The position numbers and the translations under genes were made by a program. The notes beneath the pieces are model-generated. The model saw nothing but the letters and a program-made list of their open reading frames with translations. It searched no databases and was not told the DNA's origin. A stretch of 64,000 nt of DNA, from contig CAZNDZ010000001.1 in assembly GCA_964572155.1 (NCBI GenBank), forward strand, positions 782,290 through 846,289. The letters run 5' to 3'. Source of the stretch: an uncultured Planctomycetales bacterium. Its GTDB lineage: Bacteria > Omnitrophota > Gorgyraeia > Zapsychrales > Fredricksoniimonadaceae. Of this stretch, positions 1 to 22,674 are shown piece after piece; the first letter of the stretch is position 1, and the number at the start of each line of letters is the position of its first letter.

Positions 1-35
1 GAACCGCTGGATCGTCGGGCAACATCTCAACAAAG

Positions 36-341
36 ATGCAAGCACTGCAAGATGCCGTCGCTGAAATCAAGAAGTCTGCGGATGATATAAGCCGTAACAC
101 CAATGATTCGCAATCATCCTTGAAACAAATCATCGATGGTGTCAATCAGCTCTTATCGCGTGAATCTGCGAAGGCAGGGTTAGAAGATTCAATGACGGTC
201 GCGGATCTTTCAGCTCAACAAGCTAAGGACATGGAAAAAGTACATATGAAGTTGGAAGAAATTACCGCGAAAATCAATGCCTTGAAGGAAGCAATGCAGT
301 CATCCGACGTGGTTGTCAAGTCCTGGTTTGAAAGTGACTAA
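36..341 (+). CDS. Hypothetical coiled-coil protein (101 aa from the ATG). Possibly 5'-partial, because the frame stays open to position 3.
   Basis: ORF with ATG at 36. No in-frame stop lies between position 3 and 36, so it may be the C-terminal tail of a gene that begins before the window. Helical, charged sequence with no recognisable family. Sits 8 nt upstream of the next gene. Confidence 0.45.
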   Translation: MQALQDAVAEIKKSADDISRNTNDSQSSLKQIIDGVNQLLSRESAKAGLEDSMTVADLSAQQAKDMEKVHMKLEEITAKINALKEAMQSSDVVVKSWFESD

Positions 342-349
342 TACATATT

Positions 350-1654: not shown

Positions 1655-1673
1655 TGCGTTGTTAAGGAGCAAT

Positions 1674-3203: not shown

Positions 3204-3206
3204 GCC

Positions 3207-3512
3207 ATGGCCAAAGTTTATAAAAATAATTTTTGGTGCACTATTCTTAGCCCTAAGAATATTATTTTTGAGAACAATGTTAATAGTTTGTTTATCATTG
3301 GTGACAGAAGTGAATATGAATTGTTAGCTTATCATTATCCATTGGTAGGATTGGTAAAAAAGGGCGATATCATCATTGATTGGAAGCGACGTTTACCTAT
3401 TCGTTCAGGGATCTTAAGATTTTTTGCAAATGAATGTACGATTTTGATTGAAGAGACAGCGGAAACATTTGCGGCTTCTCAAAATAAACAAGAACAAGCC
3501 ATTTCTATTTAG
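3207..3512 (+). CDS. atpC: F-type ATPase epsilon-subunit-like protein. Beta-sandwich only; the C-terminal helical hairpin is missing.
   Basis: 101 aa. The pattern ILSP..IIFE..V.SLF..G..SEY.LL..H.PLVG.VK.GDIII......LPI.SGIL....NE.TILIEETAE matches the epsilon N-terminal domain. Follows atpA after 3 nt. Confidence 0.5.
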   Translation: MAKVYKNNFWCTILSPKNIIFENNVNSLFIIGDRSEYELLAYHYPLVGLVKKGDIIIDWKRRLPIRSGILRFFANECTILIEETAETFAASQNKQEQAISI

Positions 3513-3524
3513 GAAGGAACAGGC

Positions 3525-3746
3525 ATGATAGCCGAAACGATTATTATCATGACAGTCATGTTCATCGCCGTCATGGGGCCATCTGTGGTCATTGCGGTGC
3601 TTGGTTATGCTGTTATAAAAGCGTTGAGCCGTAACCCATCAGCAGCACCAAAAGTTTTCATGGGCATGGCGATCATGTTGGTTTTTGTCGAGGCCATTGC
3701 TGTTGTTGCCATATTAATTGTATTCCAGCTCTTTTCACCTAAGTAG
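3525..3746 (+). CDS. atpE: F-type ATPase c subunit (proteolipid)
   Basis: 73-aa two-helix hairpin. Polar loop RNPSAAP. Conserved carboxylate in helix 2 (LVFVEAIAV). RBS GGAAGGAA upstream. No Na+-binding Q/ES/T signature, so it looks H+-type. Confidence 0.8.
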   Translation: MIAETIIIMTVMFIAVMGPSVVIAVLGYAVIKALSRNPSAAPKVFMGMAIMLVFVEAIAVVAILIVFQLFSPK

Positions 3747-3755
3747 GGATAACAT

Positions 3756-3983
3756 ATGGGTTTTAAATTTTGGCATGAAGCGTTTATCTTTGTATTGGTG
3801 TTTAGCGTCTTAATCATTGTTCCATGTTATTTTATCGCAGCATTTGGAGCCAAAATGATCAATGAGATTGGCAATTTTCCAACGCGTTCCGATGAGATTC
3901 AATCGAAGTCGTTGTGGAAGATCTTAGTGATATTTATTGTGACAGCATTGTTACTGTCGTTATTTTTTCATATTTTCTATTAA
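3756..3983 (+). CDS. Small 2-TM membrane protein of unknown function. Could be an Fo accessory protein analogous to AtpZ/AtpR/AtpQ.
   Basis: 75 aa with two hydrophobic helices. Lies between the c and b genes with 9- and 19-nt gaps. Too short and too hydrophilic to be subunit a. Confidence 0.45.
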   Translation: MGFKFWHEAFIFVLVFSVLIIVPCYFIAAFGAKMINEIGNFPTRSDEIQSKSLWKILVIFIVTALLLSLFFHIFY

Positions 3984-4002
3984 TCAAAGATAGGAGACTC
4001 TT

Positions 4003-4755
4003 ATGAGTTGGAATTTAATCATTCAATTTTTAGTCCTGACGACATTTATATCAGGCGCCATTATTTTTGCGTTATACATGGTCTTGATTAGAACCGTTGA
4101 TGGTGCTAAGCAACGTTTAGACCGTGATGCGGAAGCGGCGCGTAAACGTGAAGCTGAACTTAATCAAAAGATTAAGGAAGCTGATGCCCAGTTGCAACAA
4201 CGCAAAAAAGAATTAGACATCATGGAAAAGAAAATGCGTCAAGAGTTAGAAGAGCAATCAGCAAAACAAAAAGAAGAAATTATTAGCAAAGCGCGTACCG
4301 AAGCTGAAGAAATCATTGTTAAAGCACAGAATGCCCGTGATCAGATTAAGAAAGAATTAGAAAAGAATTATGAAATTAAAACTTTGGATTATTCCGTTAA
4401 GATCTTAGCAGACGTCTTCTCAAATAGTGTTAAGGATACCATTGACCGTCAATTGTTTAATGAATTTATTGAACGTTTAAAGACGGTTGATTTCTCTAGG
4501 CTTGGTCCTGATGTTAAGACAGCAGATATCATTACAGCTAATCCATTGGATCAAGCGGCGATCACGACGGTGTCTAACATATTCAAAGAAAAGTTAGGTC
4601 GTGAGATCAAATTTAATCCAAAGATTGATAAGACAGTTATTCAAGGTGTTGTTTTGCAATTTGAAAGTTTGTTATTAGATGGTAGTTTGCAAAATTCATT
4701 CAAAGAAGCTGCGGGGGCATTACGGCAACAGGTTGAGAAACAATACGCAGCATAA
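4003..4755 (+). CDS. atpF: F-type ATPase b-subunit-like protein with a delta(OSCP)-like C-terminal domain (a b/delta fusion)
   Basis: N-terminal TM helix (LIIQFLVLTTFISGAIIFALYMVLI), then a long charged coiled coil with KREAELNQK... The C-terminal segment ITANPLDQAAITTVSNIFKEKLGREIKFNPKIDKTVIQGVVLQFESLLLDGSLQNSF matches the delta C-terminal consensus (..SA.PL....I...L..K.G..V.....VD.SLIGG..I..GD.V.DGS....L). RBS TAGGAG. Confidence 0.55.
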   Translation: MSWNLIIQFLVLTTFISGAIIFALYMVLIRTVDGAKQRLDRDAEAARKREAELNQKIKEADAQLQQRKKELDIMEKKMRQELEEQSAKQKEEIISKARTEAEEIIVKAQNARDQIKKELEKNYEIKTLDYSVKILADVFSNSVKDTIDRQLFNEFIERLKTVDFSRLGPDVKTADIITANPLDQAAITTVSNIFKEKLGREIKFNPKIDKTVIQGVVLQFESLLLDGSLQNSFKEAAGALRQQVEKQYAA

Positions 4756-4769
4756 TACCTTGAGGCGAC

Positions 4770-5627
4770 ATGGGCAAAGCCAGTAAAGTTAAATATGAAG
4801 TTATGGAAGTCCGTGAGCTCGTCGACCTCGTTCAAGTTTTAAAAGACGTTGCGGATATGAAGTATCACTCGCTGATTGCCCAGCGATCAAAGTTTAATCG
4901 TTTTACAGAATCCTTTACCGATTTCTTTAGTCTCGTCAGTTTCTCAGAAGTAAGACACCCTTTAGTTAATAACAGCACCCCTAAAACAGCCATTTTAGTT
5001 ATCTCATCTGAACGTGGTTTCGTTGGCGATTTAAATACGCGTGTGGTTAATCGTGCTGTTGAAGAATTAGAAAAATTAAATGGTAATGCAGAATTTGTTG
5101 TTATTGGCAAAAAAGGTGTTGGTAAATTAGAGAGCATGGGCTACAAGCTCTTAAAATCATGGGAAGATGTTGAAGACAAAGGTTTTTATGAAATGTCTTT
5201 GGAGATCAAAGACTTTCTAGTTAAAGAAGTTATGGAAGAGCGCATTGGACGTGTGATTGTCGTTTACCCATGGCCTAAAGACTATACCGTGATCAAGCCG
5301 CGTGCCGTTAAATTATTGCCCTGTGAAGATCTTTTGCCGCAGCAACAAGCGAGTGTTGATTTTTTTAAAGAACTGATTGAAGAATCTGATCCTGTCGATA
5401 TGATGGGTTATCTAGCAGATATGTGGTTGTCATCGAAAATATTTGAAATATTTTATGATACAAATTTAGCGGCAGCATCGGCGCAAACCCAGCAATTGGA
5501 TAATAGTTTAGGAAAGATGAAGAAAGAGCGGGAAGTTGTTAAGTTAAAATATCGCAAAGCCCGTCGTGGTGACATTGATAAGAGTTTACGTGAAGTTTTC
5601 TCAGCCAGAATGATGGCGATCAAATAG
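4770..5627 (+). CDS. atpG: F-type ATPase gamma-subunit-like protein
   Basis: 285 aa. TAILVISSERGFVGDLN resembles the gamma motif VGYLVVSTDRGLCGGLN. Helical N and C termini (YRKARRGDIDKSLREVFSA resembles the gamma C terminus). Position between b/delta and beta. Divergent. Confidence 0.55.
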   Translation: MGKASKVKYEVMEVRELVDLVQVLKDVADMKYHSLIAQRSKFNRFTESFTDFFSLVSFSEVRHPLVNNSTPKTAILVISSERGFVGDLNTRVVNRAVEELEKLNGNAEFVVIGKKGVGKLESMGYKLLKSWEDVEDKGFYEMSLEIKDFLVKEVMEERIGRVIVVYPWPKDYTVIKPRAVKLLPCEDLLPQQQASVDFFKELIEESDPVDMMGYLADMWLSSKIFEIFYDTNLAAASAQTQQLDNSLGKMKKEREVVKLKYRKARRGDIDKSLREVFSARMMAIK

Positions 5628-5634
5628 GAGATAG

Positions 5635-7095
<1,461 letters not shown>

Positions 7096-7096
7096 T

Positions 7097-8842
7097 ATGT
7101 TTAAATCCGTTTCCAATAAGATCCTCCAAGATGTCCTTATCAAACAAGGTATCTCAAGCGTTACCGATGTAGCCAGCCATTTTTTTGCCGCACAATCCCA
7201 GCGACGGGATTTGTATGCATATCTCATTGAGAATAATGTTATCCCTGAGACGGTCTTAGCTGGGGCATTGGCCAAAGAATTTCGCGTTGACATCGTTGAT
7301 CTGCGCAAAATTGAAATCCCCGATAGTGTCATCGACCGAGTTCCTGTCAAAATAGCTAGTTTCTATGAATTCATGCCTGTCGCTTTAAATGGCAATGAAT
7401 TAACCATTGCCGTCTATCTTCCAGGTGATTTGCGTATGGAAGATGACATTCGTATTAATCTTGGTTTGTCACCTAAGTTTGTTTTAGCACCTAAGTTGCA
7501 AATTCAAGAAGCGTTAAAAAAATATTATGGTTTTGCCTCCCAAACCATTGAAGGCATTTTAAATAAAGAGCCTCAAAAAATAGCGACTGATCACACGCAA
7601 GCTTGGGTTGAGGATATTGAGAAAAAGAGTGAAGATCCGTCGGTAGCCAAGTTGGTTAATCAGATCATTCTGGAAGCGTATCAAAAAAGAGCTACCGATA
7701 TTCATTTGGAACCGTACCGTGATAAAGTGCGTTTACGTTATCGCATTGATGGTGTTTTGGTTGATGCAAATTTACCTCCTGAGGCGAAACATTTTTTGTT
7801 GCCCATCTTATCGCGCATCAAGATCATGTCGAACTTAAGCATCACTGAGCGTCGCTTGCCGCAAGATGGCAGTACGGTTGTGCGCACCAATGAGCAAGAT
7901 TTGGATTTGCGTATCTCAACTATTCCCACACCTCGGGGGGAGAGTATGGTGATTCGCATCTTGCCAACAAAAAGCATGCGCAATAATTTAGAAAGTTTAG
8001 GGCTTAACGCCTACAATGCAGAAAAGTTTCGTAAATTAATTAGCCAACCCCATGGCATCATCTTTGTTACAGGACCGACGGGAAGTGGTAAGACCACAAC
8101 CTTATACGCATGTTTGCATGAATTAAATCGAGATGCTCATAAGATCATCACGATTGAAGATCCCATTGAATATGAGATGGAAGGTATCACCCAGATTCAG
8201 GTCAACCCTAAGATCAATTTTTCATTTGCGGAAGGTTTGCGTAGCATCTTGCGTCATGACCCTGATATCATCATGGTCGGGGAAGTTCGAGATTTAGAGA
8301 CAGCAGAAATAGCCATTCGGACAGCATTGACTGGTCATTTGGTTTTTTCAACCTTGCACACCAATGATGCTGCCTCAGGCATTACACGGTTGATTGACAT
8401 GGGGCTGGAGCCCTATTTGATTGCCTCTTCTGTTGAAGCATTTGTGGCTCAACGTTTGGTGAGATTGATTTGTCCTCAATGCAAACAGAAAGATGATCAG
8501 GTGCCTAAGGAAATTCGCCAAGAGATTAAAGAATCGTTGCAATTACCGACGGATGACTTCGTGGCATATAAGGGTGTTGGGTGTGATCATTGCAATCGTA
8601 CCGGTTATTTTGGGCGAACGGCAATTTACGAGATTTTTGAAATGAGCCCTGCGGTTAAAGCCATGCTTAATACAAAACCAAAATTAGAACAATTAAAAGC
8701 GTTAGGTTTGCAAAACGGGATGGTGACATTGCGTCAAAATGGTTGGCAAAGTGTTGTCGAAGGTTTGACGACGGTATCAGAAGTCTTGAATGTCACGGGA
8801 AGAAAAGACCCGGTTTCCGATTATGCCCTCGTTCGTCTATAA
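7097..8842 (+). CDS. gspE: Type II secretion / type IV pilus assembly ATPase, GspE/PilB family
   Basis: N-terminal T2SSE_N-like domain. Walker A GPTGSGKTTT. Walker B DPDIIMVGEVRD. His box GHLVFSTLHTND. Tetracysteine CPQC...CDHC. Starts 1 nt after the atpD stop. Confidence 0.85.
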   Translation: MFKSVSNKILQDVLIKQGISSVTDVASHFFAAQSQRRDLYAYLIENNVIPETVLAGALAKEFRVDIVDLRKIEIPDSVIDRVPVKIASFYEFMPVALNGNELTIAVYLPGDLRMEDDIRINLGLSPKFVLAPKLQIQEALKKYYGFASQTIEGILNKEPQKIATDHTQAWVEDIEKKSEDPSVAKLVNQIILEAYQKRATDIHLEPYRDKVRLRYRIDGVLVDANLPPEAKHFLLPILSRIKIMSNLSITERRLPQDGSTVVRTNEQDLDLRISTIPTPRGESMVIRILPTKSMRNNLESLGLNAYNAEKFRKLISQPHGIIFVTGPTGSGKTTTLYACLHELNRDAHKIITIEDPIEYEMEGITQIQVNPKINFSFAEGLRSILRHDPDIIMVGEVRDLETAEIAIRTALTGHLVFSTLHTNDAASGITRLIDMGLEPYLIASSVEAFVAQRLVRLICPQCKQKDDQVPKEIRQEIKESLQLPTDDFVAYKGVGCDHCNRTGYFGRTAIYEIFEMSPAVKAMLNTKPKLEQLKALGLQNGMVTLRQNGWQSVVEGLTTVSEVLNVTGRKDPVSDYALVRL

Positions 8843-10031
8843 AGCCAAGAATACTAGCGCACAAACTGTTACGGGGCATGTTCAAGCCCAGCATCAGGAA
8901 GAAGCGTTGGAATTTATCTACAATCAAGGCCTTGTTCCTGTTTCCATCGAAGAAGAAACCAATCGCGGTGTTTTAGTCAGCCAAATTCAAACAAAGAAAA
9001 TTAAGAGCAAAGAAATCTATTTGTTTACAAAACAATTAGCAGGCTTAGTCAAATCTTCCGTGTCGTTGTTAAAAGCTTTAGAAGTTATTGCGCAACAAAA
9101 TCGTAATCCTTATTTTTCAAAAGTTATCGACGAGATAGCTCAAGGGGTCAGGACTGGTCGTTCATTTTCAAATTGTTTGGCGCAGTATCCGGTGATATTT
9201 TCAAATGTCTATGTGTCTATGATTCGTGTTGGGGAGGAGATGGGGCATTTGCGAGATGTGTTGATTGACTTGGCGCAGTTTTATAAACGCCAAGATGAAT
9301 TATCAAGCAAGGTATCGAGTGCGATTGTTTATCCGCTTGTCATGTTAGGCGTGGGTTCATTAACCGTAATCTTTATTCTGACCTTTGTCTTGCCAAAGAT
9401 AGCTGTGATCTTTGCTGATGCACATGAGCAATTACCAACACCGACGATCATCGTGATGACGATTAGTCAGTATGTGCGTTTATTCTGGATTCCAACATTT
9501 GCAGCAGGAGCGATCCTTTTTGTCGGGTTTAATCGTTGGCGCAAAACAAATATGGGTAAGATTGTCATTGGCGGGTGGTTGTTGCGGTTACCCGTCATAA
9601 AAGATTTGGTTATTAAGATTGATTTCACCCGATTTAGTCGCACCACCTTCTTGTTATTGCAGAGTGGTTTGCCATTATTGCGGGCAATTGAGACAGCCGC
9701 TCAAACAATGTCTAATCCGCAGTTAAGGATGGATATGTTAATGACCGCAGAAGCGTTAAGTGGTGGTGAGAATTTTGGACGATCATTAGCGCGTTGTCAT
9801 CATGTGCCTCCTATTTTTATAGAGACTTTGGCGGTTGCGGAAGAGGGTGGGCACTTAAAAGAAGCCTTTGCGGATATTGCTGATTCTTGTGAAATGGATG
9901 TTTCCGACGCTATTAAAACAATTACAACGTTGCTCGAACCTTTTATGATTCTAGCCGTTGGTGCCGTTGTTGGTTTTATTATCTTTGCAATGCTCTTGCC
10001 TATTTTTTCTATGGATATCATGGCCAGATAA
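8823..10031 (+). CDS. gspF: T2SS/T4P inner-membrane platform protein, GspF/PilC family
   Basis: Two tandem GspF domains with 3 TM segments. N terminus MPSFVYKAKNTSAQTVTG is GspF-like. Start taken at ATG 8823, which overlaps the gspE stop by 20 nt; the ORF track begins at 8790. Confidence 0.8.
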   Translation: MPSFVYKAKNTSAQTVTGHVQAQHQEEALEFIYNQGLVPVSIEEETNRGVLVSQIQTKKIKSKEIYLFTKQLAGLVKSSVSLLKALEVIAQQNRNPYFSKVIDEIAQGVRTGRSFSNCLAQYPVIFSNVYVSMIRVGEEMGHLRDVLIDLAQFYKRQDELSSKVSSAIVYPLVMLGVGSLTVIFILTFVLPKIAVIFADAHEQLPTPTIIVMTISQYVRLFWIPTFAAGAILFVGFNRWRKTNMGKIVIGGWLLRLPVIKDLVIKIDFTRFSRTTFLLLQSGLPLLRAIETAAQTMSNPQLRMDMLMTAEALSGGENFGRSLARCHHVPPIFIETLAVAEEGGHLKEAFADIADSCEMDVSDAIKTITTLLEPFMILAVGAVVGFIIFAMLLPIFSMDIMAR

Positions 10032-10032
10032 A

Positions 10033-10860
10033 ATGCCTAACATGTTTACATGGATGCTGTGTTTTTTATTGTTTCTTAATGTTCCAGCACAAGCTTTTGA
10101 GATCAATTTTGATTTGGAACAATGGAAACAGAAGAAAGGCGACCATTTTGTTGTTTATTATACGCAACAATCACAGGAACAGGATGCAGGAGAAATCCTG
10201 CGACATGCTGAAGAGGATTATGAGCGTATCCTAGATCGTATTGGTGCTAAGAAGGTTGATAATTTCTGGACGTGGGATGATCGTGTAAAGATTGTTTATT
10301 ACCCAGATGCGCAAAGTTTTGTGAAAGCAACTGGGCAACCGTCATGGTCTAAGGGTGTTTCCCTGAGCCATGCATCTAATTTCAAAATGCGTTTGATTGT
10401 TAGCTTTCAAGGTCAAGATGACTTTCTAGGTGCCGTCTTGCCACACGAAATTAGTCATTTGGTGATGCATGATTTTATGCGCAATAAACCCATGCCACGT
10501 TGGTTTGATGAGGGGGTTGCACAATTAGACGAAAGCAATAATAACGAGGAGCATCGCAAACTTTTAGCAAAATTGATTGAAAGCAATCGTGGGATTCCTT
10601 TTGCGATGTTGGATGCGTTTCCTTCCATGATCAGTGAGGATCCCATGAAGGCTGCAATATTTTATGCAGAAAGTCTTTACATTGTTGACTTTTTGATTAA
10701 AACTTATGGTAAGGATAATTTTGCCGAATTATGCCGGTTATTAAGAGATGGTCAAAATTTTGAAGCAGCTTTGGCAAAAGCGTATTATCCGACCATAGAT
10801 TCGTGGCAAACATTAGAAGCAAAGTGGAATCAGTACATGTTGTCTTTTGTACACATTTAA
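10033..10860 (+). CDS. Secreted HExxH zinc-metallopeptidase-like protein (gluzincin-like), embedded in the T2SS operon
   Basis: Start at ATG 10033, 1 nt after the gspF stop. Signal peptide MPNMFTWMLCFLLFLNVPAQA. HEISH motif with a downstream DEG glutamate (LPHEISHLVMHDF...WFDEGVAQ). Not a PilD/GspO-type polytopic prepilin peptidase. Confidence 0.55.
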   Translation: MPNMFTWMLCFLLFLNVPAQAFEINFDLEQWKQKKGDHFVVYYTQQSQEQDAGEILRHAEEDYERILDRIGAKKVDNFWTWDDRVKIVYYPDAQSFVKATGQPSWSKGVSLSHASNFKMRLIVSFQGQDDFLGAVLPHEISHLVMHDFMRNKPMPRWFDEGVAQLDESNNNEEHRKLLAKLIESNRGIPFAMLDAFPSMISEDPMKAAIFYAESLYIVDFLIKTYGKDNFAELCRLLRDGQNFEAALAKAYYPTIDSWQTLEAKWNQYMLSFVHI

Positions 10861-10880
10861 TAGAATAAACAGGGGGCTAT

Positions 10881-11300
10881 ATGAATCTACGTAAATTTAA
10901 CCAAGCATTTACCTTAGTTGAGATCTTGCTAGTGGTTGTGATCATTGGGGCATTGGCTGCTATGATCATCCCACGATTTGCAGGTCGAGGAGAAACAGCC
11001 AAGGTCAAAGTTGCTCGGACTGATATCGAAGCAAATATTTCAACAGCCTTGAAATTATATGAATTAGATAATGGCAGCTTTCCTTCAACGTCACAAGGTT
11101 TAGCGGCCTTGAAAACCCGTCCAAGTGGCAATCCAATTCCTGCAAATTGGAATGGTCCTTACATCGAGAAAGCTCCTCTTGATCCTTGGGGTCATGCATA
11201 TGTTTATGCTTCTCCAGGGGAACATCGTTCTGACTATGACCTTTCTTCAAAGGGAAAGGATGAGGCATCTGACAAGGATGACATCACCAATTGGCAATAA
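10881..11300 (+). CDS. gspG: T2SS major pseudopilin GspG
   Basis: Prepilin leader and N-methylation motif (KFNQAFTLVEILLVVVIIG). GspG-specific C-terminal signature GLAALKTRP...PANWNGPYIEKAPLDPWGHAYVYASPGEHRSDYDLSSKGKD...DDITNWQ. Confidence 0.85.
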   Translation: MNLRKFNQAFTLVEILLVVVIIGALAAMIIPRFAGRGETAKVKVARTDIEANISTALKLYELDNGSFPSTSQGLAALKTRPSGNPIPANWNGPYIEKAPLDPWGHAYVYASPGEHRSDYDLSSKGKDEASDKDDITNWQ

Positions 11301-11682
11301 TTCAAAAGGGTTTACCTTTGTTGAAGTAATGGTGACGTTGGTTGTTCTTTCCTCGGGGATTGTTTTTATCTACAAATCTTTTTTCTTGTGCGCTGATTAT
11401 TTAACCCGCCTATCATTGCGCTTGGATGCGAATCAATTGCTCGATAATAAGATCACAGAGATCAAACGCTATGTTAGCGGTAGTCATGATCTTTCTTTTT
11501 CGCGTTCAGGAATTATCCCCGTGGAAGCGTTTAATCATCGCACGATTCAATTCTTCTATCAGACGGAGTTGTCGCCGATCATTGGTTCTGAGGATTTGTA
11601 TCAGATGAATGTTAGTCTGTCGTGGGAAGAATATGGTCATAAAAAACATTTAAATCGCATGAGCTTGTTGGAGATAGGATGA
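11278..11682 (+). CDS. Minor pseudopilin (GspH/GspI-like)
   Basis: Prepilin motif NNSKGFTFVEVMVTLVVL. Start is the ATG at 11278, overlapping the gspG 3' end by 23 nt in another frame. The ORF-track start at 11125 is spurious. Confidence 0.6.
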   Translation: MTSPIGNNSKGFTFVEVMVTLVVLSSGIVFIYKSFFLCADYLTRLSLRLDANQLLDNKITEIKRYVSGSHDLSFSRSGIIPVEAFNHRTIQFFYQTELSPIIGSEDLYQMNVSLSWEEYGHKKHLNRMSLLEIG

Positions 11683-12269
11683 GATTACGTCGTTCTGGAT
11701 TTACCTTAATGGAAATTTTGTTGGTCTCTGTCCTTATTGCTACGGTTTCGATTGCCATTTTTGGTGTTTTAAATAATGGCATTAAGTTATGGAGTCGTGG
11801 TATGGCGGTTGATAAAAAGGGCGAATTATTTATTGGCCTTGAGAAGATTGCCCAAGATTTTAGAGGGGTGTTGCCTTTTTCATTAATTAAATTTAAAGGC
11901 ATGGAATCGCAAGTTTCATTCGCAACCATTGTACTGACGCCTGCGGATGTTCGCAGCAGTCGCGTAACGGAGGGGATTGTGGATCAGCTTGGTGCTGTTG
12001 AATATCGTTTTGATCCTGCTTTAGGCAAGATGTTCCGACGACAAGCAGATTATGGTCAGGCCATTAAAAAGCAATGGGGTCAAGAACAAGAAATAGCATC
12101 GGGGATAAGTGATGTCCGTTTTGATTATTATATTGACGGGCAGAAAAGTTATGAACGCAAAGCGCATATTGAAACTCACATCCCAAAGGGTGTGATGTTG
12201 ACCATGCGATTTGGTGAACGTGGTCCACAAATGCAGCGTTATTTTGAAATCCCTGTGGGAGGACAGTAA
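11679..12269 (+). CDS. Minor pseudopilin (GspJ-like)
   Basis: Prepilin motif RRSGFTLMEILLVSVLIA. 196 aa. Four-nt ATGA overlap with the preceding gene. Confidence 0.55.
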   Translation: MRLRRSGFTLMEILLVSVLIATVSIAIFGVLNNGIKLWSRGMAVDKKGELFIGLEKIAQDFRGVLPFSLIKFKGMESQVSFATIVLTPADVRSSRVTEGIVDQLGAVEYRFDPALGKMFRRQADYGQAIKKQWGQEQEIASGISDVRFDYYIDGQKSYERKAHIETHIPKGVMLTMRFGERGPQMQRYFEIPVGGQ

Positions 12270-12274
12270 AAGCC

Positions 12275-13297
12275 GTGCGATTTAGAACATTACGACAAAA
12301 TGGTTTTGTTTTGATCTTTGCCTTATGGGTTTTGGGGTTGTTGACTTTTTTGGCCGTGAGCGTCGCTTTAGGTGTGCGCCAAAAAACGTTAGCGGCAGAG
12401 AAACTCGAAGAGCAAAGTCGCATGTATTATTTGCAAGAAGCGGTGCTTAAGCAAGTTAAGGTGTATATTCGCAAACAAATGAATGACCATCAATTTATTT
12501 ATACGGCAGATCTTAAACAACAACTTCATAATAATATAAACTTTTTTGGCCGCATTCCATTCGGAGCGGACAATGCATCTGTTAGTTTTACGTTGTATGA
12601 TCAAGGTCGTTCCATGGAACAGTTTGGTGTTGTTGACGAGGAGAGAAAGGTTAATCTCAATACAACTAATATCTATGTTTTACAGCGTCTAATCGAGCAA
12701 GTATTAGATGTAAAGCCAGAAGAGCGTTTACAGTTAGCTCAAGCCATTTTGGATTGGCGTCAACAAGGACAATCACAAGCTGACGGTTTTTTTAGCGATG
12801 ATTATTATGGGAATTTGAAACATGCATATTTTAAGAAAGATGCAAATTATGAATTGATGGAAGAGTTGCTATTGGTTAAGTGGATGACGCGCACTAAGTA
12901 TGAACGTTTATTGCCGTATGTGACGGTGTATGGTGAAGGTAAGGTGAATATCAATACAGCGTCGGGTGTTGTGTTGTATGCTTTGGGGCTTGATCATGCT
13001 GTCGTTGAAAAGGTTTTAACGGCCCGACGTGGAAAAGATGGGTTGGAGGCAACCGGGGATGATTTATTTTTTACAAAGACATTTGATGTGGCCAGTGATG
13101 TTGGAAGTCGTGTGAAGTTGGAACCGCAAGAAATGCGCGCCATAGATGCGCTTAATTTACAGGGTGTCTTGACGACAAATTCATATTATTTTTATTGTGC
13201 CATGCAGTCGCGTTTGTCACGCTCGGGTTGGTCTCGCCAAGCCCAAGCCATTTACGCGTCTAGGGATAATAAGGTTTTATATTGGAGAGAAAAATAA
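12275..13297 (+). CDS. gspK: Minor pseudopilin GspK-like protein
   Basis: N-terminal NGFVLIFALWVLGLLTFLAVSVAL matches the GspK G.ALL.VLW.L.LL signature. ~340 aa. Sits after the GspH/I/J-like genes as in gsp operons. Confidence 0.6.
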   Translation: MRFRTLRQNGFVLIFALWVLGLLTFLAVSVALGVRQKTLAAEKLEEQSRMYYLQEAVLKQVKVYIRKQMNDHQFIYTADLKQQLHNNINFFGRIPFGADNASVSFTLYDQGRSMEQFGVVDEERKVNLNTTNIYVLQRLIEQVLDVKPEERLQLAQAILDWRQQGQSQADGFFSDDYYGNLKHAYFKKDANYELMEELLLVKWMTRTKYERLLPYVTVYGEGKVNINTASGVVLYALGLDHAVVEKVLTARRGKDGLEATGDDLFFTKTFDVASDVGSRVKLEPQEMRAIDALNLQGVLTTNSYYFYCAMQSRLSRSGWSRQAQAIYASRDNKVLYWREK

Positions 13298-13366
13298 TTA
13301 TTTTTCCATGGTACGGTTATAAAATTTAGTTATAATAAAAACAATTAAATAAATACCAGAGGGCTC

Positions 13367-14788
13367 ATGTTCGGAAATGACAAAAAATTTTTAAGTGTCT
13401 TGATCGCAGATGCAACCATCAAAGTGGCACAGGTTACATCTTCCGGTAACGTAGAAAAAATCGCCCGTGCCACAGCAGCGAGCTCTACGCAGGATGAAGT
13501 TGTTAAGGCGCTTAAACCGCTTCTTGGTGGTTTTGATCGCAAGGCATCGGTTGTCTGTGTTATTTCAACAGCACATGCCACATCGAAGAGCATTGAAGTT
13601 CCATCCAGTGATCCAAAAGAAATAAAATCCATTATTAATTTACAAGCTAGCCGTCATACACCATATTCCCGTGAGGAAGTTATCATTGGGCACGTGAATC
13701 TTGGTAGCATGGCAAATGGTAATACCAAAATCCTACTCGTCATTGCTCATCGCAATGTGATAAAAGAACGTTTAGCTATTTTAGAAAAATGTGGTTTAGT
13801 TGCTGATAAGATCTTGTTTGCTCCTGAAGGCATTGGTCGTTTATATTCTAAGGGATTAAATCTTAAGAATAATGCCAGTGTTGGTGTTATCGATTTCGGT
13901 CTAAATAACGTTAATTTCTGCGTAGTCGGTCGAGGCAGCGTGATTTTTGCACGTTCCATCAATTTAGGCATCAAGAATTTGCTAGAGCCTGAAGGTGCAA
14001 AAGCGGTGGCTGATGAAATTAGCAAAACATTGGTTGCATTTCAAGCAGAAGACACCCAAGCGGTTGAATCTTTTATTGTGACAGGCGATCATAGTGTTAT
14101 CAAAGATTTCTTAACCACGTTAAATGATATTTTAAAAGTTGAAGTTCGTCTAAGTCCATATGTATCGCTTTTAAAGACAAATGCAGTGAAGGGTAAATTA
14201 CAAAAAGATTATGCCGATGACTCATTCTTAGAGGTTGTTGCTTCTGCTGTCACAAGCGCTAAATCAGAAGTTAATTTCATCCCAGATGAAATTGTCATGA
14301 AGCGCACGGTTGAACAACAAAGTGTTGAGGCAAGCAAAGCAGGTGTCGCAGGTGTTGTCATCATGTTGCTTTTAGGTGGCATCTTGATGAGTAAGATTTA
14401 TTTCAAAGATGTTTTCTTGACGAAGAATTTAAAACAGCGTTATGCAGAGCAACATGAAGAAGTTGTAGCGTTGCAAAATAAGATGGCTAAGGTGAGGATC
14501 GTCCGGGAATACATGCGCGATCGTCTGGTAGGTCTTGATGTTTTAAAAGAAATTTATCGTGTCACGCCTAATGACATCTATTTGTCAGCGATTAGTTTAG
14601 AAGAAGATGGCTCGTTGACCTTGTCAGGTATTTCACCATCAATGTCACAAATCTTTACTTATGTTAAGACGCTCGACGATTCACCAATGTTTGTCGATGC
14701 CAAAACAAAATCAACCTCAACAAAAAAAGACGGCGCCAAAGATTTAGCTGTGTTTGAGGTGGCATTAAAATTAAAGGAAGCGAATTAG
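13367..14788 (+). CDS. GspL-like / PilM-PilN fusion protein (cytoplasmic actin-like domain, TM, periplasmic domain)
   Basis: N-terminal actin-fold (PilM/GspL-cyto-like) region. Single TM (AGVAGVVIMLLLGGILMSKIYF) near aa 320. PilN/GspL-periplasmic-like C terminus. Preceded by a 69-nt AT-rich gap. Confidence 0.5.
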   Translation: MFGNDKKFLSVLIADATIKVAQVTSSGNVEKIARATAASSTQDEVVKALKPLLGGFDRKASVVCVISTAHATSKSIEVPSSDPKEIKSIINLQASRHTPYSREEVIIGHVNLGSMANGNTKILLVIAHRNVIKERLAILEKCGLVADKILFAPEGIGRLYSKGLNLKNNASVGVIDFGLNNVNFCVVGRGSVIFARSINLGIKNLLEPEGAKAVADEISKTLVAFQAEDTQAVESFIVTGDHSVIKDFLTTLNDILKVEVRLSPYVSLLKTNAVKGKLQKDYADDSFLEVVASAVTSAKSEVNFIPDEIVMKRTVEQQSVEASKAGVAGVVIMLLLGGILMSKIYFKDVFLTKNLKQRYAEQHEEVVALQNKMAKVRIVREYMRDRLVGLDVLKEIYRVTPNDIYLSAISLEEDGSLTLSGISPSMSQIFTYVKTLDDSPMFVDAKTKSTSTKKDGAKDLAVFEVALKLKEAN

Positions 14789-14789
14789 C

Positions 14790-15350
14790 ATGAATGTGAT
14801 CACACAATTTATAGCTGGCTTATCGAGCACAGGAAAAAAGTTATTTGCGATTGCATTTGTGATTGTTGCCATTGCCTTATTTGATCGCTTGCTTATCTCG
14901 CCGACATTGTCCCGCATGTCTGCCATCGATAGTGACATTGAAAAAGAGACCAATAGCATTAAGCAAGATTTACGATTTTTAAGTTATAAAGATAAAATTA
15001 ATTCAGAAAGCAAGGTTTATGCACCATACTTAAGCGAAAAAGCTTTGTCAGAAGAAGAAATTATCTCAGCTTTTTTAAAGAGCATTGAAGTTTTGGCTAA
15101 AAAAGGAAATGTCACGGTTGCAAAAGTAACGCCATCGTCTGGTAGTAAAGAAAAAGATTATGTGAAGTATGTTGCTGATTTAGAATGTTCAGGGGTGTTG
15201 TCTGACGTGGTGACGTTTATCCATTTAATTGATACTTCCGAAGAATTAATGAAGGTAGTGAAATTTAGTTTCTCTTCAAAGAAAGCCGACTCCGACGAAA
15301 TCAAAGCCGTCATGACCATCCACAAGGTCGTTATCTCAAAACGTGATTAG
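14790..15350 (+). CDS. GspM/PilO-like bitopic membrane protein
   Basis: 186 aa with an N-terminal TM (LFAIAFVIVAIALF) and a periplasmic domain. Follows the GspL-like gene after 1 nt. Confidence 0.4.
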   Translation: MNVITQFIAGLSSTGKKLFAIAFVIVAIALFDRLLISPTLSRMSAIDSDIEKETNSIKQDLRFLSYKDKINSESKVYAPYLSEKALSEEEIISAFLKSIEVLAKKGNVTVAKVTPSSGSKEKDYVKYVADLECSGVLSDVVTFIHLIDTSEELMKVVKFSFSSKKADSDEIKAVMTIHKVVISKRD

Positions 15351-16083
15351 ATTTTTCCTCATAGTTTTATTAAGTCTATTCGTTGTTATCCCCAATGCGA
15401 TGTCTGCAACTGTGCGCGAATTATACGAACAAGCTGTTGATAGTTACAATCAACAAAAGTTCGATGATGCCATTACGTCTTATCAAGAGATTTTAAAGAT
15501 GGCTCCAAATTTTGCGCCAGCCTATGTTGGCATCGGTCTTTCTTTGAAAGCTAAGGGGGCAGAGACCGACGAAGTTGTTCATTATTATAATGAAGCTGTG
15601 AATCATGATCCAACCAATTTGCAGGCCTTAGAGCAATTGGGGCGATTGTATTATGCTATTAATCAATTTGATAAAGCAGAGAAGGTTTTTTTAAAATCAC
15701 TTAAGATAAATCCTGCCCAACCAGAGATTAAACAAGCATTGGCATGGGTATATTTGATTGGAAAATCTAAGCCTGAGCTTGCCATCAAGTATTTTAAATC
15801 CGCAGGTCAATTAAATAAGCCAGACACGATGTATGGCCTTGGCATGGCGTATTTTTCTAACAATCAGCGCGTGGAAGCAATGGATATGATGATGCAATTG
15901 CGTTCCGGTGGTTTTGATGATTATGCCAAGCGGCTTGAGCAAGCCATCCGTGAGAACAGGCGTGTTGTCTTAGATAGTAATGAAGATGGTGGTTCGAAAG
16001 AAGATTTTTCCGATATGACAACCAAATCAAGTAAAAGTGGTGTCAAGGTCCGCTTACGCGGCAAGCTCTCCGATTTGAATTAG
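15343..16083 (+). CDS. Exported TPR-repeat protein
   Basis: Signal peptide MIRFFLIVLLSLFVVIPNAMSA. Several TPR-like repeats (AITSYQEILKMAPNFAPAY..., ALEQLGRLYYAINQFDKAEKVF...). Last gene of the T2SS block. Confidence 0.55.
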   Translation: MIRFFLIVLLSLFVVIPNAMSATVRELYEQAVDSYNQQKFDDAITSYQEILKMAPNFAPAYVGIGLSLKAKGAETDEVVHYYNEAVNHDPTNLQALEQLGRLYYAINQFDKAEKVFLKSLKINPAQPEIKQALAWVYLIGKSKPELAIKYFKSAGQLNKPDTMYGLGMAYFSNNQRVEAMDMMMQLRSGGFDDYAKRLEQAIRENRRVVLDSNEDGGSKEDFSDMTTKSSKSGVKVRLRGKLSDLN

Positions 16084-16115
16084 CCATTATATAGATAATA
16101 TGGTATTCTTTTGGC

Positions 16116-19100
16116 ATGCAAGGGAAGTTCTTAAAATTACTCCTATGTTGTTGTTTACTGCCATTTCCTAGATTATTTGCAGGGGAGATTGTATTGCCTG
16201 CACCAGGGACAATGGTGCATTTAAGCCCTGCTGTAGAAATACCCATCTTAAAAGGCATTAAAGTTCACAGCGACGATCCTTTCCGTCTCGAATTCGTCTT
16301 AGACTCCGGAAACAATACATCCACCGATCTAAAGGAAGAATCTAATAAGCTGATTAAATATTTCCTAGCCAGCTTAACCACCCCCGATAAAGACATGTGG
16401 GTCAATCTAAGCCCATATGAAAAAGACCGCATCATCCCAGATCAATTCGGCCAAACTCAAATGGGGCGCGATCTATTGGCGCAAGATTATATCCTCAAAC
16501 AAATCACCGCGAGTTTGATTTATCCCGAGGACACAGTTGGTCGAGAATTTTGGCGACGCGTTTATCAATCTTCAGCAAATAAAAACATTCCCGTTAAGAC
16601 ATTTAACAAAGTATGGATCGTCCCTGATAAGGCTGTTGTCTATGAAAATGCTAAGGCAGGGGCTGCGTATGTTGTGGAATCATCCCTTAAGGTTTTAACA
16701 GAACAAGATTACCTCGCCAGTACCAAAAATAACAATGAATCAAATAACAATCAAATCATCAAAGACGTTGTGATCCCGCAATTAACCAAAGAAATCAACA
16801 CCGGCGCCAACTTTGCTCAGTTGCGACAAGTATACAATGCCTTAATTTTAGCGACGTGGTACAAAAAGAAGATTCAAGACAGTATTTTAAATAAGGTTTA
16901 TTCGGATAAGCATAAGATTCATGGAGCAACATATGAGGACACGTTAGATACTAAATTGATTTATGCGCGTTATTTGGAAGCATTTAAGAAAGGTGCGTAT
17001 AACTACATCAAAGAAGATACTGAAACGCTTGGCATTACAGGGCCAAGAAAGTATTTTTCTGGTGGATTTAATTTGGCGTTGAGTGGTGATGACAGCCTAA
17101 AGGTTACAACGGATGCGGCCATGGTATATCGACGTAGGGATCATTTAATGCAAGTGGATGTTAATCTTTCAGGCATTTCATCACCATCAAGAAACTTGTC
17201 AGGGAAGAAAGTTAAGTTTTCTGAATTTGTTGAATGGATGAATCAAGATTTTGATAATCCTCATGTGCTTTCTGACGCAGAAGTTTCCTCGTTAGCTGCA
17301 AGATTTAATATTCAACATCGAGATTTTGATCTATTGAAAAAAGAAGGAATGAATATTGCTAAGGGAAGTTATGCGTTTTATCAAGATTTACCAAAAGATG
17401 GAAAGTTAAATGTCTATTTATTCCGTGATGCATTTGGACTATACCTTGCGGATAAGATGTCTGGTGGAGATCCTTTAGCCATGATGGTTTCAAAAACCTC
17501 TGTTAGTTCATTAGGATTGGATGGATTAGACGTGGAGATGTCTGCCGTTGTTGATGAGATCAAAAGGAGGATGGGTTTAGCACTGGATGCTCCTATACCT
17601 GAAGAGCAATATGCTAGATTTAAGCAATTATTTTTTAAGTTTTGGGACAACTTATTTGAACATAAAAGCGTTGGAAAGATGTCGTCGGATGATGCGTTTG
17701 TTTTGAAGGATCAAGATAATCTCATCAATGCCATGCATCAGTTATCTGCATATGCCAATAGCATAGGGATAACCAGTCAATTGGTAAAGACGAGAGGGGT
17801 TAGATTTATTGATACTACGATGAGAGGGACCCTTGTTCTTTTTATGGAAGCTGTGGTGCATATGATGGCTAAAAGTGATGGTTTACAACAGGATCAGATT
17901 AAAACAGATAGTCGGATGTTTTATAGTCAATGGTCGCAAGCTTTAAGCGCACTAAAGTTATCTTCATCTGAAAAGATTGCGCGCATGACAGAATATTTTG
18001 ATTATCCTATTAGGTTTAGAGGATTTGATAAGAATTATACGCCACGCGTAGAATTTCGAGATCCTCACTTTATCAACAAGTTTATTTTTTTAACACGATT
18101 AATAAAAAGTGAACTCTTAAGATTAAATCAAGATCACGCTCAAATGTCACAAAGTTTGTCGATGGATGATATTTCAATAATACAGACGATGCCTTTGAGT
18201 GAGGCTGGCAAGCAATTGATTGTACGTAAGGCGCGGGGGTTGATGGGACAAATGCAAGCTAATAGAGCACTATACCAAAATGGTCAGCACGATATATGGC
18301 AGGATGTTCCATCTTTAATAATGAGTAATCCATATTCTGCTGTTTTTCGTCCAGAAAATAAAGAGGCAATTCATGTGTATGCAGAGGAATTAAAAAGATT
18401 ATGGCTAGAGAATGGATTTGATGAGGCTTATGGGGCGCTTACTGAGGTTATCGCAGCGTTTGAAGCAAACAAAGGCGCCCGTCCATCACAGCTCACATTG
18501 TTTCACCAAGTATTCCTGCAATTTCTAGAGAGTTTCGATGCGCAAGCGAAGGCGATGGGTTTAGCACAGTTAGTCGTTAATCATAGTTTGCATTTAAGGT
18601 TTAATGGATTGCATGATGAGGTGCATGATGTTAATTGGGGTTCAGTCTTTATTGATAATGAATTATTAATTGGTCATGATGATATACAGGGAGCGCTTCA
18701 GAGGTATTTACTATCATTAGTTGAGTTAAGCAAAGACAAAAACAGATGGGAATCTATTCTACCGGGTAAGGACGGAGCAGCGAATCATTTAGGGATTAGA
18801 TTAAAAGATCATTTGTTATGGGTGCTTGTTCTAGGAATAGATCCTAGTCTTCATGCATTTACAAATCAACCAAATGATGTCATAGATGAGGTGTTGAAGA
18901 AATATTGGGGCACTGATAATCGAGAACAGGTGATGCAATTGGCTGTAAAGAAGATATTTAGCGATCCATTATTAAAAGATCATCTGGAAGAGATTAATGT
19001 ATTAGTCAAAGAAGCGTTAACGATTTCTTCTCAAGAGTGGGAAAGCAAAGGTTTACGTTCACCATATCGTTTTGGTGTGGATTTTGGAAGTGCTGAATTA

Positions 19101-19508
19101 TTATTCAAATCGACAAGATTTGCAGATACATCAGCTTGGGAAAAGTATCCTTTAAAAGATAGGTTTTTGATGGTTGGTTTGCAACCTGAATTTCTGCCCA
19201 CGTATGAGATCTTTGAAGATAGAGGTCTTAAGGGGAGAGTTGATGTGTATTTGGCACAAGATAAGGGTAAAGATTTGAGACCTTTGTATGAAAGAATTTT
19301 AGAGAAACAGTTATCCCTGTCGCCAACAGGTGGGATTGATTTGAATGCGAGTAGAATGAATTTGGAGACGCAGCAGGTTGGGGAGGGGATTCGGTTTAGG
19401 TTGGATGAGGGGCAAATTGAGCGTTTGAAAGATATGGAAGGTTTGTCGCATGTGATTATTAAGATTGCACCTGTCACAGATCTGCAGCAGTTTTTAGGGA
19501 TTTTATAA
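16116..19508 (+). CDS. Giant exported protein, paralog 1 of 3 (1130 aa). Conserved N-terminal ~330-aa domain and conserved C-terminal ~60-aa 'GGIDLNA' domain.
   Basis: Signal peptide MQGKFLKLLLCCCLLPFPRLFAG. The N-domain is near-identical in long stretches to those at 38454 and 55642 (LPAPGTMV.LSP, LIKYFLASLT, WVNLSPYEKDRI, GRDLLAQDYLLKQITASL, FNKVWIVP, LRQVYNALILATWYK, AFKKGAYNYIKE, PRKYFSGG). C terminus PTGGIDLNASRMNLETQ...IKIAPVTDLQQFLG. Confidence 0.8.
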   Translation: MQGKFLKLLLCCCLLPFPRLFAGEIVLPAPGTMVHLSPAVEIPILKGIKVHSDDPFRLEFVLDSGNNTSTDLKEESNKLIKYFLASLTTPDKDMWVNLSPYEKDRIIPDQFGQTQMGRDLLAQDYILKQITASLIYPEDTVGREFWRRVYQSSANKNIPVKTFNKVWIVPDKAVVYENAKAGAAYVVESSLKVLTEQDYLASTKNNNESNNNQIIKDVVIPQLTKEINTGANFAQLRQVYNALILATWYKKKIQDSILNKVYSDKHKIHGATYEDTLDTKLIYARYLEAFKKGAYNYIKEDTETLGITGPRKYFSGGFNLALSGDDSLKVTTDAAMVYRRRDHLMQVDVNLSGISSPSRNLSGKKVKFSEFVEWMNQDFDNPHVLSDAEVSSLAARFNIQHRDFDLLKKEGMNIAKGSYAFYQDLPKDGKLNVYLFRDAFGLYLADKMSGGDPLAMMVSKTSVSSLGLDGLDVEMSAVVDEIKRRMGLALDAPIPEEQYARFKQLFFKFWDNLFEHKSVGKMSSDDAFVLKDQDNLINAMHQLSAYANSIGITSQLVKTRGVRFIDTTMRGTLVLFMEAVVHMMAKSDGLQQDQIKTDSRMFYSQWSQALSALKLSSSEKIARMTEYFDYPIRFRGFDKNYTPRVEFRDPHFINKFIFLTRLIKSELLRLNQDHAQMSQSLSMDDISIIQTMPLSEAGKQLIVRKARGLMGQMQANRALYQNGQHDIWQDVPSLIMSNPYSAVFRPENKEAIHVYAEELKRLWLENGFDEAYGALTEVIAAFEANKGARPSQLTLFHQVFLQFLESFDAQAKAMGLAQLVVNHSLHLRFNGLHDEVHDVNWGSVFIDNELLIGHDDIQGALQRYLLSLVELSKDKNRWESILPGKDGAANHLGIRLKDHLLWVLVLGIDPSLHAFTNQPNDVIDEVLKKYWGTDNREQVMQLAVKKIFSDPLLKDHLEEINVLVKEALTISSQEWESKGLRSPYRFGVDFGSAELLFKSTRFADTSAWEKYPLKDRFLMVGLQPEFLPTYEIFEDRGLKGRVDVYLAQDKGKDLRPLYERILEKQLSLSPTGGIDLNASRMNLETQQVGEGIRFRLDEGQIERLKDMEGLSHVIIKIAPVTDLQQFLGIL

Positions 19509-21971: not shown

Positions 21972-21987
21972 TATCCTAAAATTTCAT

Positions 21988-22674
21988 TTATTGTCTACGG
22001 ATATTTGAGAGTAAAGTTAAATATTGTTCGTGGATTTTGTCAGAAGCAATGCAGAGGCTAGAACGTTCTTTGCTTTGATGTTTACCCATCACCATTCCAA
22101 GTAACTTTCCTTGGCGGTTAAAGATAGGGCCGCCACTATCTCCTTGATATAAATTCAAGTTTGTTTCTATGAATTCTATTGTACCTTGTGAACGACTTTG
22201 AATCAGGCTTGTGATATTTCCTGATAAGATGCTGTTATTGTTATATTCAGATGATCCAATGGCAATGATAGGTTCTCCAATTTGCGCTAACGCTGAGTCT
22301 GCAAACTTAACAGGGCTTAGTCCGAAACCAGGATTGATTTTAAGGATACTAAAGTCGTGGTCGATAGATACATATAGCACTTGTGCGTTATAGCTTTTTT
22401 TGTTAGACAAGGTGATGATAATGCGTGGCGCATTCTTAATAATATGGGTGTTGGTGACGATTAAACCCTTTGCGTCAATGATGATCCCTGTACCTTGGCG
22501 GGTGTAGGCTACTTGTTTCTTGCCTTTTTTTGTCGACATGACCTTGGTATAAACGGTTTGAACGCTAACCAAAGATTTTTCTAAACGTTGCATTTGCTCT
22601 AAAACAGAGGGTCCGGCATGGCACACCTGCGGTACAAAAAATATACAAATAAGGCAGTAAATAATTCTTAACAT
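21988..22674 (-). CDS. Exported trypsin-like (S1 family) serine protease
   Basis: Signal peptide MLRIIYCLICIFFVPQVCHA. Catalytic serine motif GDSGGPIF. TNTHI histidine region. 228 aa with no PDZ domain. Lies upstream of the OST-like gene on the minus strand. Confidence 0.7.
   Translation of the reverse strand: MLRIIYCLICIFFVPQVCHAGPSVLEQMQRLEKSLVSVQTVYTKVMSTKKGKKQVAYTRQGTGIIIDAKGLIVTNTHIIKNAPRIIITLSNKKSYNAQVLYVSIDHDFSILKINPGFGLSPVKFADSALAQIGEPIIAIGSSEYNNNSILSGNITSLIQSRSQGTIEFIETNLNLYQGDSGGPIFNRQGKLLGMVMGKHQSKERSSLCIASDKIHEQYLTLLSNIRRQ

Follow-up and report, generated by a model that had tools for sequence, protein, structure and literature searches.

A type II secretion-type pseudopilus locus of Candidatus Omnitrophota and its probable secretin half beyond a large repeat gene

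Inner-membrane and pseudopilus genes of the locus

We analysed a 64,000-nucleotide stretch of contig CAZNDZ010000001.1 (the window), which derives from a member of Candidatus Omnitrophota, with emphasis on a cluster of genes for a type II secretion system (T2SS)-like apparatus at 7097-16083. We propose that this cluster probably represents one half, with the inner-membrane and pseudopilus components, of a T2SS-type locus conserved across Candidatus Omnitrophota, and that its secretin half probably lies to the left of the window. An initial annotation of the DNA had listed here an E ATPase, an F platform protein, G, three minor pseudopilins including a K-like one, a PilM-PilN fusion and a PilO-like protein; the listing of open reading frames (ORFs) together with Pfam and NCBIfam scans confirmed that all the genes it named are present within this span, all on the + strand. 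Three of the genes start later than their longest ORFs, as judged from the genes called on identical contigs: those for a peptidase (10033), the first minor pseudopilin (11278) and a tetratricopeptide repeat (TPR) protein (15400).

The gene at 10881-11300 encodes a major pseudopilin with a class III signal peptide, and its assignment as GspG is a solid prediction: the protein scores 146.5 bits with TIGR01710 (cutoff 88.85), its top eight matches in the PDB are all GspG, and it has a GFTLVE prepilin motif as well as the C-terminal DxxSxGxD...DDIxNW region, which bears out the full T2SS signature that had been read from the sequence at the outset. Upstream of gspG lie the genes for the platform protein GspF (8790-10031; PF00482, 192 bits), for which TIGR02120 was the top model with 328 bits compared with 234-244 bits for PilC models, and for a GspE/PilB-family assembly ATPase with an N-terminal MshEN domain (7097-8842; PF00437, 432 bits). 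The subtype of this ATPase appears ambiguous between PilB and GspE: the NCBIfam models for the two gave 560 and 555 bits, respectively, both under their equivalog cutoffs, and PilB came first among the PDB matches, with GspE next. Downstream of gspG, three minor pseudopilins are encoded. The first (11278-11682) occupies the GspI position and was recognised by its N-methylation motif only, its globular part being unrecognised; the second (11679-12269) is GspJ-like by a weak match; and the third (12275-13297) is GspK (PF21687, 45.2 bits vs 26.2), whose sole PDB match is GspK. The G-F-T-L-x-E prepilin motifs are conserved in all pseudopilins across the phylum.

The next gene (13367-14788) encodes a GspL-type protein, in which a cytoplasmic PilM-like actin-fold domain is fused to a periplasmic PilN-like domain (PilM_2 plus PilN); the protein matches PilM and PilN models, not GspL. 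It is followed by a PilO/GspM-like gene (14790-15350), which is kept in 49 loci; its GspM and PilO scores are weak and under cutoffs, and the assignment was made mainly from position. Queries with E. coli GspL and GspM gave no phmmer match. Two further proteins of the cluster have signal peptidase I (SPase-I) signal peptides, namely a periplasmic or secreted gluzincin metallopeptidase of the Peptidase_MA_2 family with an HExxH motif, encoded between gspF and gspG (10033-10860), and a periplasmic TPR protein without a lipobox, encoded at the end of the cluster (15400-16083). No GspH, GspN or GspO is encoded in the locus.

Left edge of the window and the secretin module of relatives

Consistent with the initial annotation, which had reported no secretin, GspC or prepilin peptidase anywhere in the 64 kb, neither Pfam nor phmmer searches recovered one. 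Nearly every non-nested ORF of at least 100 residues in the window was scanned, and none matched the Pfam families Secretin, T2SS-C or Peptidase_A24; the exception to the scan (61722-62840) is a Peptidase_M50/PDZ protein by precomputed Pfam matches. The three families were likewise not found in the ORFs that run off both ends of the window, which were followed for ~5 kb more on identical contigs. Further, E. coli GspC, GspD and GspO as phmmer queries gave nothing at E <= 1 against the window and 1.38 Mb of related loci, both translated in six frames, and no A24 prepilin peptidase was found in the window or in any related locus retrieved. Because the E. coli GspD query does detect Omnitrophota secretins (at about 1e-30), the negative result for a secretin in the window is meaningful; for GspC, the phmmer negative is a weak test. 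The products of 350-1654, 16116-19508, 30803-34033 and 55642-57852, and of the upstream ORF on an identical contig (L085), were considered as divergent secretins and rejected: they give no Pfam or NCBIfam secretin signal and are coiled-coil, repeat or novel-domain proteins.

The cluster belongs to a longer array. From 3 to 19508 all genes of the window lie on the + strand, the widest intergenic gap is 70 nt, and a promoter and terminator scan gave nothing beyond shuffled sequence that would divide the array. At its left edge (3-341) the window holds only the tail, the last 112 codons, of a gene for a large secreted GINW-repeat protein. In the source organism at least 788 residues of this protein are encoded on the identical contig (L085:1-2367), as repeats of about 13 residues (GINWNDFGVLSKT) and then a coiled coil; the repeat protein is built of dozens of 13-residue GINWNDFGVLSKT-type repeats and a coiled-coil tail. 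The tail is followed by a gene that we call unk434 (350-1654), the product of which is a bitopic protein with coiled coils; it starts with a signal peptide or membrane anchor and has a transmembrane helix at the C-terminus. It has no Pfam or NCBIfam match and belongs to no known family; 133 homologues were found (37-78% identity), and those that are named come from Omnitrophota. Next come seven genes of an F-type ATPase cluster (1659-7095), of which the last, for the beta subunit, stops 1 nt ahead of the gspE start.

A scan of species-representative genomes for homologues of the peptidase yielded 80 loci, which were retrieved with flanks of 10 kb; the homologues bearing a source name are nearly all labelled Candidatus Omnitrophica or Omnitrophota. 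The order unk434, F-type ATPase genes, gspE, gspF, peptidase, gspG, two minor pseudopilins, gspK, L-like, M-like and TPR was kept in 67 of the 80, and a beta-like gene is directly 5' of gspE in 48 of the 49 loci with enough sequence (median gap 13.5 nt). Seymour et al. 2023 (PMC10066038) have described "symbiotic" F-type ATPase clusters beside "type-4a pilus" clusters in every Omnitrophota class, at most 10 kb apart on 57 of 66 contigs, under the name "symbiotic F-ATPase/T4aP loci", and the locus in the window is a member of this published type. Within the 10-kb flanks of the peptidase gene no secretin was found in the 67 loci, where the flanks end at unk434, short of the far side of the big ORF that precedes it. 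The upstream search was re-anchored on unk434 and covered 10 kb upstream of it at each site examined. Everywhere examined, a big ORF lies directly 5' of unk434 (868, at least 1027, at least 2360, at least 2476, at least 3073, 4146, 7686 and 7879 residues), and unk434 always lies between this ORF and the ATPase genes, alpha first. The C-terminus of the repeat protein is conserved at this upstream edge in five loci, and in the nearest relative on a long contig the repeat gene encodes 7,879 residues.

The array is present in full, and on a single strand, on one contig of an Omnitrophica metagenome-assembled genome (L093), where its upstream half has no gap wider than 40 nt; dozens of other contigs show parts of it that overlap. 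On L093 it comprises genes for a 192-residue bitopic protein, a 548-residue secretin, a TPR protein, two FGE-sulfatase proteins and an 868-residue repeat protein, and it continues with unk434, the ATPase genes, gspE, gspF, gspG, two minor pseudopilins and gspK. The repeat protein of this contig (7392-9998) has a signal peptide and aligns with that of the window to the final residue; judged by this alignment, it is the orthologue of the protein whose tail opens the window. The 548-residue protein has Secretin_N and Secretin domains (precomputed Pfam). Its best PDB match is the T2SS secretin GspD (5wln, 3.5e-36), ahead of PilQ; next in rank are another GspD, secretins of the PilQ type and more GspD entries (1e-31 to 1e-24); the single solved RcpA, at 7e-17, falls far under GspD and PilQ.

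As a query, this secretin found 40 more metagenome loci, mostly at 60-76% identity. The bitopic gene is directly upstream of the secretin in 26 of 28 loci, a TPR gene is downstream of it in 30 of 31, and all 14 loci of sufficient length continue with two FGE genes, after which comes the repeat ORF. The repeat gene always stands between the secretin module and unk434. The bitopic protein (190-192 residues) crosses the membrane once, with its N-terminus in the cytoplasm, and its C-terminal domain comprises ~70 residues; in relatives its gene overlaps the start of the secretin gene; mostly from this position and architecture, we tentatively call it GspC-like. Two secreted proteins with FGE-sulfatase domains (precomputed Pfam) are encoded side by side at L093:4187-7382 and at the corresponding site of 14 metagenome loci; the N-termini inspected suggest SPase-I signal peptides rather than those of lipoproteins. 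To the left of the module are ORFs that resemble glycine-cleavage and glycosyltransferase genes (N-terminal sequences only), and no pilus genes. Separately, on one metagenome contig, a 48% identical, possibly truncated secretin (L133:3408-4514) adjoins STT3-like and PIG-L genes, with no gsp genes near it.

When the inserted genes, which form two blocks, are left out, the array reads C-like, D, E, F, G, I-like, J-like, K, L-like, M-like, which is the order of the E. coli gsp operon. Because the window opens inside the repeat gene that follows the secretin module in relatives, the secretin half is probably cut off and not absent. In this genome it most likely lies to the left of position 1, past a repeat gene of maybe many kilobases, and the missing secretin and GspC are most likely an effect of the window edge, not a new secretin-free mechanism. 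The possibility raised at the outset that the missing parts are encoded remotely is thus supported by the GspD-type secretin and GspC-like gene found upstream, on the same strand, in orthologous loci. The conserved prepilin motifs imply, in addition, that an A24 peptidase must be encoded outside the examined loci. Such a peptidase is commonly encoded apart from the T2SS locus, as is the shared PilD/XcpA of Pseudomonas.

By analogy with known T2SSs, the A24 peptidase encoded elsewhere would cleave the prepilins, and a GspE hexamer on GspL and GspF would polymerise a short GspG pseudopilus with an I-J-K cap. The pseudopilus would push Sec-exported periplasmic cargo through the secretin, and the GspC-like protein would link the platform to it. 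Overall, the locus would be a T2SS operon of canonical order that is split by the genes for a divergent F-type ATPase and for a giant secreted repeat protein, and this throughout a phylum of uncultured nanobacteria that presumably live on other cells.

Alternative readings and the accessory genes

The pseudopilus genes could instead build a type IVa pilus (T4aP), in which the GspG-like pilin forms a surface fibre, used to attach to host or prey cells or to move on them, and not a piston for secretion in the periplasm. Seymour et al. 2023 (PMC10066038) class these clusters as T4aP by TXSScan and tie them to attachment, and the epibiotic or predatory lifestyle also speaks for such a fibre. Further, the ATPase has PilB as its best PDB match and scores marginally higher with the NCBIfam model for PilB than with that for GspE, and the L-like protein fits PilM and PilN models. 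However, the major pilin is over the GspG equivalog cutoff with GspG alone among its top eight PDB matches, a GspK with T2SSK domains is present, and PilM and PilN are not separate but fused, as in GspL, with no PilP. Moreover, no PilT-type retraction ATPase is encoded in the window, where the sole other T2SSE-family gene is TadA-like, the gene order is colinear with gsp operons, and the best match of the secretin is GspD. We therefore regard a T4aP as unlikely, and the locus appears better described as a split Gsp-type T2SS.

It is more improbable still that the array reflects synteny only, with the gsp genes functionally unlinked to the ATPase, the repeat gene and the secretin, and the secretin serving, for example, a Tad system. 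Omnitrophota do have secretins in further type IV filament systems (RcpA, and a gspD close to giant genes), and a TadA-like ATPase is encoded at the end of the window. On the other hand, no Tad or other filament genes adjoin the upstream secretin, whose left neighbours are the glycosyltransferase and glycine-cleavage-like ORFs mentioned above; the gaps are tiny, all genes lie on one strand in the order gspC-D...E-M, and the secretin matches GspD (3.5e-36) far better than RcpA (7e-17). A true lack of the secretin and GspC, that is, a reduced secretin-independent pseudopilus that is perhaps contact-dependent or uses another outer-membrane route, has the absence of secretin, GspC and A24 genes from the 64 kb and its extensions of about 5 kb, and from within 10 kb of the peptidase gene in 67 related loci, in its favour, but it is the least probable of the three and gained no positive support, as the flanks of those 67 loci never extend beyond the big ORF, the secretin module is present wherever sequence passes this ORF, the repeat gene that comes after the module elsewhere has its orthologous tail in the window itself, and the organism is a diderm, as its lipopolysaccharide (LPS) genes in the window imply (kdsA/kdsB-type, an LptC/LptA fusion and lptB), and would need a conduit.

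Several points weigh against a split T2SS as we propose it. The contigs identical to the window end inside the repeats, and the secretin of this genome is placed by synteny. Both halves are joined on one contig only (L093), which has the shortest repeat gene and no peptidase. The GspC-like protein has as its sole PDB match the HR domain of GspC at E = 0.17, and hhalign of this protein against E. coli GspC was not significant. To these may be added the ATPase, which is slightly nearer PilB than GspE, the L-like protein, which fits PilM/PilN and not GspL, the failure to find GspH and GspO in the locus, the cargo proteins, which are candidates only, and the published label of the cluster, which is T4aP (Seymour et al. 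2023, PMC10066038).

We next consider the two signal-peptide proteins of the cluster, which the initial annotation had seen as standing in the place of GspD and GspC. This view is wrong. They are extras: the peptidase is absent from some loci, and a second TPR protein accompanies the secretin. The HExxH motif of the peptidase and a Glu ~20 residues downstream are both invariant, and its AlphaFold2 model is confident (predicted local distance difference test score 84.8), with the peptidase domains of M9 collagenases as the nearest folds (template modelling score about 0.6). The protein is therefore predicted to be an active gluzincin, of a generic fold that indicates no specific function. Its median identity across loci is 42%, the same as that of GspF. 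Among eight loci sampled independently of it, the peptidase lies between gspF and gspG in six and is absent in two, so that it is a frequent accessory and not a core part. A paralogue of about 30-34% identity (L076:10001-10783) lies in the murG-murC interval of the division/cell-wall (dcw) cluster, which hints at a role of the peptidase in the envelope; a further paralogue (L072:9923-10708) shows the same gene-length pattern as this dcw locus. Other paralogues adjoin mutS/mutL and giant ORFs, and distant homologues in Gemmataceae and Desulfobacterota show no linkage to pilus genes. Orthologues of the TPR protein have an SPase-I signal peptide, in nearly all cases without a lipobox, and so the protein is not a canonical lipoprotein pilotin. 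A pilotin was also rejected by score, as PilW/Tgl models did no better than unrelated TPR families. As a guess, the peptidase and the TPR proteins could act in accessory assembly or in cargo processing.

The ATPase cluster upstream of gspE comprises genes, all on the + strand, for alpha (1659-3203), epsilon (3207-3512), a c-like subunit whose second transmembrane helix contains a Glu (3525-3746), a small membrane protein of two helices (3756-3983), a b/delta fusion (4003-4755), gamma (4770-5627) and beta (5638-7095). No subunit a is encoded in the cluster. Alpha and beta are above the canonical AtpA and AtpD cutoffs, and gamma, delta and epsilon are far under theirs. According to a 2026 preprint, F-type alpha and beta occur in 125 of 176 complete Omnitrophota genomes, gamma at a strict threshold in 30, and subunits of V/A-type ATPases in most of the class Gorgyraeia; these data are consistent with the cluster not being a housekeeping synthase. 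That it is a mechanical or energetic partner of the pseudopilus genes is a guess.

Directly after the TPR gene lies a gene for a 1130-residue secreted protein (16116-19508, +), a member of a family that we call big1130. This protein and a paralogue encoded at 55642-57852 have a signal peptide, an N-terminal domain of ~300 residues, a variable middle and a C-terminal GGIDLN domain. The family has at least 1,355 homologues, of which the named ones are nearly all from Omnitrophota, with HAD, methyltransferase, HEAT or kinase domains among the varying middles. Depending on the genome, its members are found at three sites: downstream of the TPR gene, in the interval from the beta gene to gspE, or in that from gspE to gspF. 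The N-terminal domain (AlphaFold2 score 74.9) has no PDB match by fold or sequence. The architecture of the family resembles that of polymorphic effectors. It is plausible that the big1130 family, the repeat protein and perhaps the peptidase, all predicted to have Sec signal peptides, are cargo; the 1130-residue protein is a candidate cargo and not a machine part.

The whole array might form one composite envelope machine of secretin, TPR protein, FGE/GldK-like pair, repeat fibre, unk434, ATPase without subunit a, and pseudopilus, although we consider this doubtful. In such a machine, the pseudopilus and secretin would export or anchor the giant fibre, and the rotary or mechanical work by which the cell attaches to its host or moves on it would come from the ATPase. 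If true, ultra-small predatory or parasitic bacteria would possess a surface apparatus of a new kind. As a composite, the array is sufficiently unusual for experimental follow-up, and it offers concrete cargo and partners to test in co-cultures of Velamenicoccus archaeovorus.

Several other genes of the window were noted. At 19503-22674, on the - strand, genes for a trypsin-like protease and for a protein resembling STT3-type oligosaccharyltransferases run towards the array end, as in most related loci; in other genomes PMT_2, GT2 and epimerase genes are found at this site, which suggests a glycosylation neighbourhood. A lone TadA/CpaF-like ATPase of 427 residues (62853-64000, running off the end; L088:1280-2563) is flanked by genes for an RseP-like M50 protease and a class II aminoacyl-tRNA synthetase (hisS-like), with no other Tad genes near. 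The window also encodes a stand-alone PilZ protein (28281-28661), a 1,076-residue protein of no family (30803-34033), a 1,719-residue protein with Glucosamine_iso and weak NUDIX domains (38454-43613) and, at 47679-48524, the LptC/LptA fusion.

Comparison with known systems

The locus resembles the canonical Gsp T2SS (E. coli gspC-O, Klebsiella Pul, Pseudomonas Xcp) in its over-cutoff GspG, its GspE/GspF motor and platform, its GspK-capped minor pseudopilins, its GspL-type architecture and its GspM-like protein and, in relatives, in a GspD-type secretin that follows a small bitopic GspC-like gene and in the order C-D-E-F-G-I-J-K-L-M. It differs in that D and E are separated by genes for a TPR protein, a pair of FGE-sulfatase proteins, a giant repeat protein and a bitopic protein and by the seven genes of an F-type ATPase, in that a gluzincin peptidase usually lies between F and G and a second TPR gene after M, and in that the locus has no GspH, GspN or GspO and an ATPase and L protein that are more PilB- and PilM/PilN-like. 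With the T4aP (PilBCMNOPQ, PilA, PilT) it shares a PilB-like ATPase with MshEN, domains like those of PilM, PilN and PilO, and a TPR protein that recalls PilF, PilW or Tgl, whereas the GspG-type major subunit, the fused PilM-PilN, the absence of PilP and PilT and the TPR proteins without a pilotin lipobox set it apart. The cluster is not of the competence (Com) or Tad type: its proteins score far lower with models of ComGA, ComGB and ComGC than with Gsp and Pil models, and the cluster holds no Flp, TadB or TadC.

FGE-sulfatase is the domain family of the ring proteins PorK/GldK and GldJ of the Bacteroidota type IX secretion system (T9SS). Two secreted proteins here share this domain, a likeness at the level of the domain family only; no other T9SS component was seen at the locus, and the N-termini inspected among the FGE proteins suggest SPase-I signal peptides and not lipoproteins. 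The ATPase genes recall the type 2/3 F1-like ATPase clusters of Mycoplasma (the gliding motor and MIB-MIP), in that a non-respiratory-looking set of alpha, beta, gamma and epsilon stands beside surface-interaction genes. In contrast to the Mycoplasma clusters, the cluster of the window includes a c-like subunit and a b/delta fusion, its alpha and beta exceed the canonical AtpA and AtpD cutoffs and have lower scores with the Mycoplasma models, and the host is a diderm.

Seymour et al. 2023 (PMC10066038) placed the alpha subunit near the Mycoplasma type 2/3 F1-like ATPases. The locus type of that paper has the same adjacency of an F-type ATPase and pilus-type genes as the window, under a T4aP label, and the passages of the paper that were consulted make no mention of GspG or GspK identity, the peptidase, the TPR proteins, an upstream secretin module or the repeat protein. 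Compared with the published adjacency, our analysis adds that the pilus part is Gsp-type, that a secretin module lies beyond the repeat gene, and that a peptidase and a polymorphic secreted family travel with the locus.

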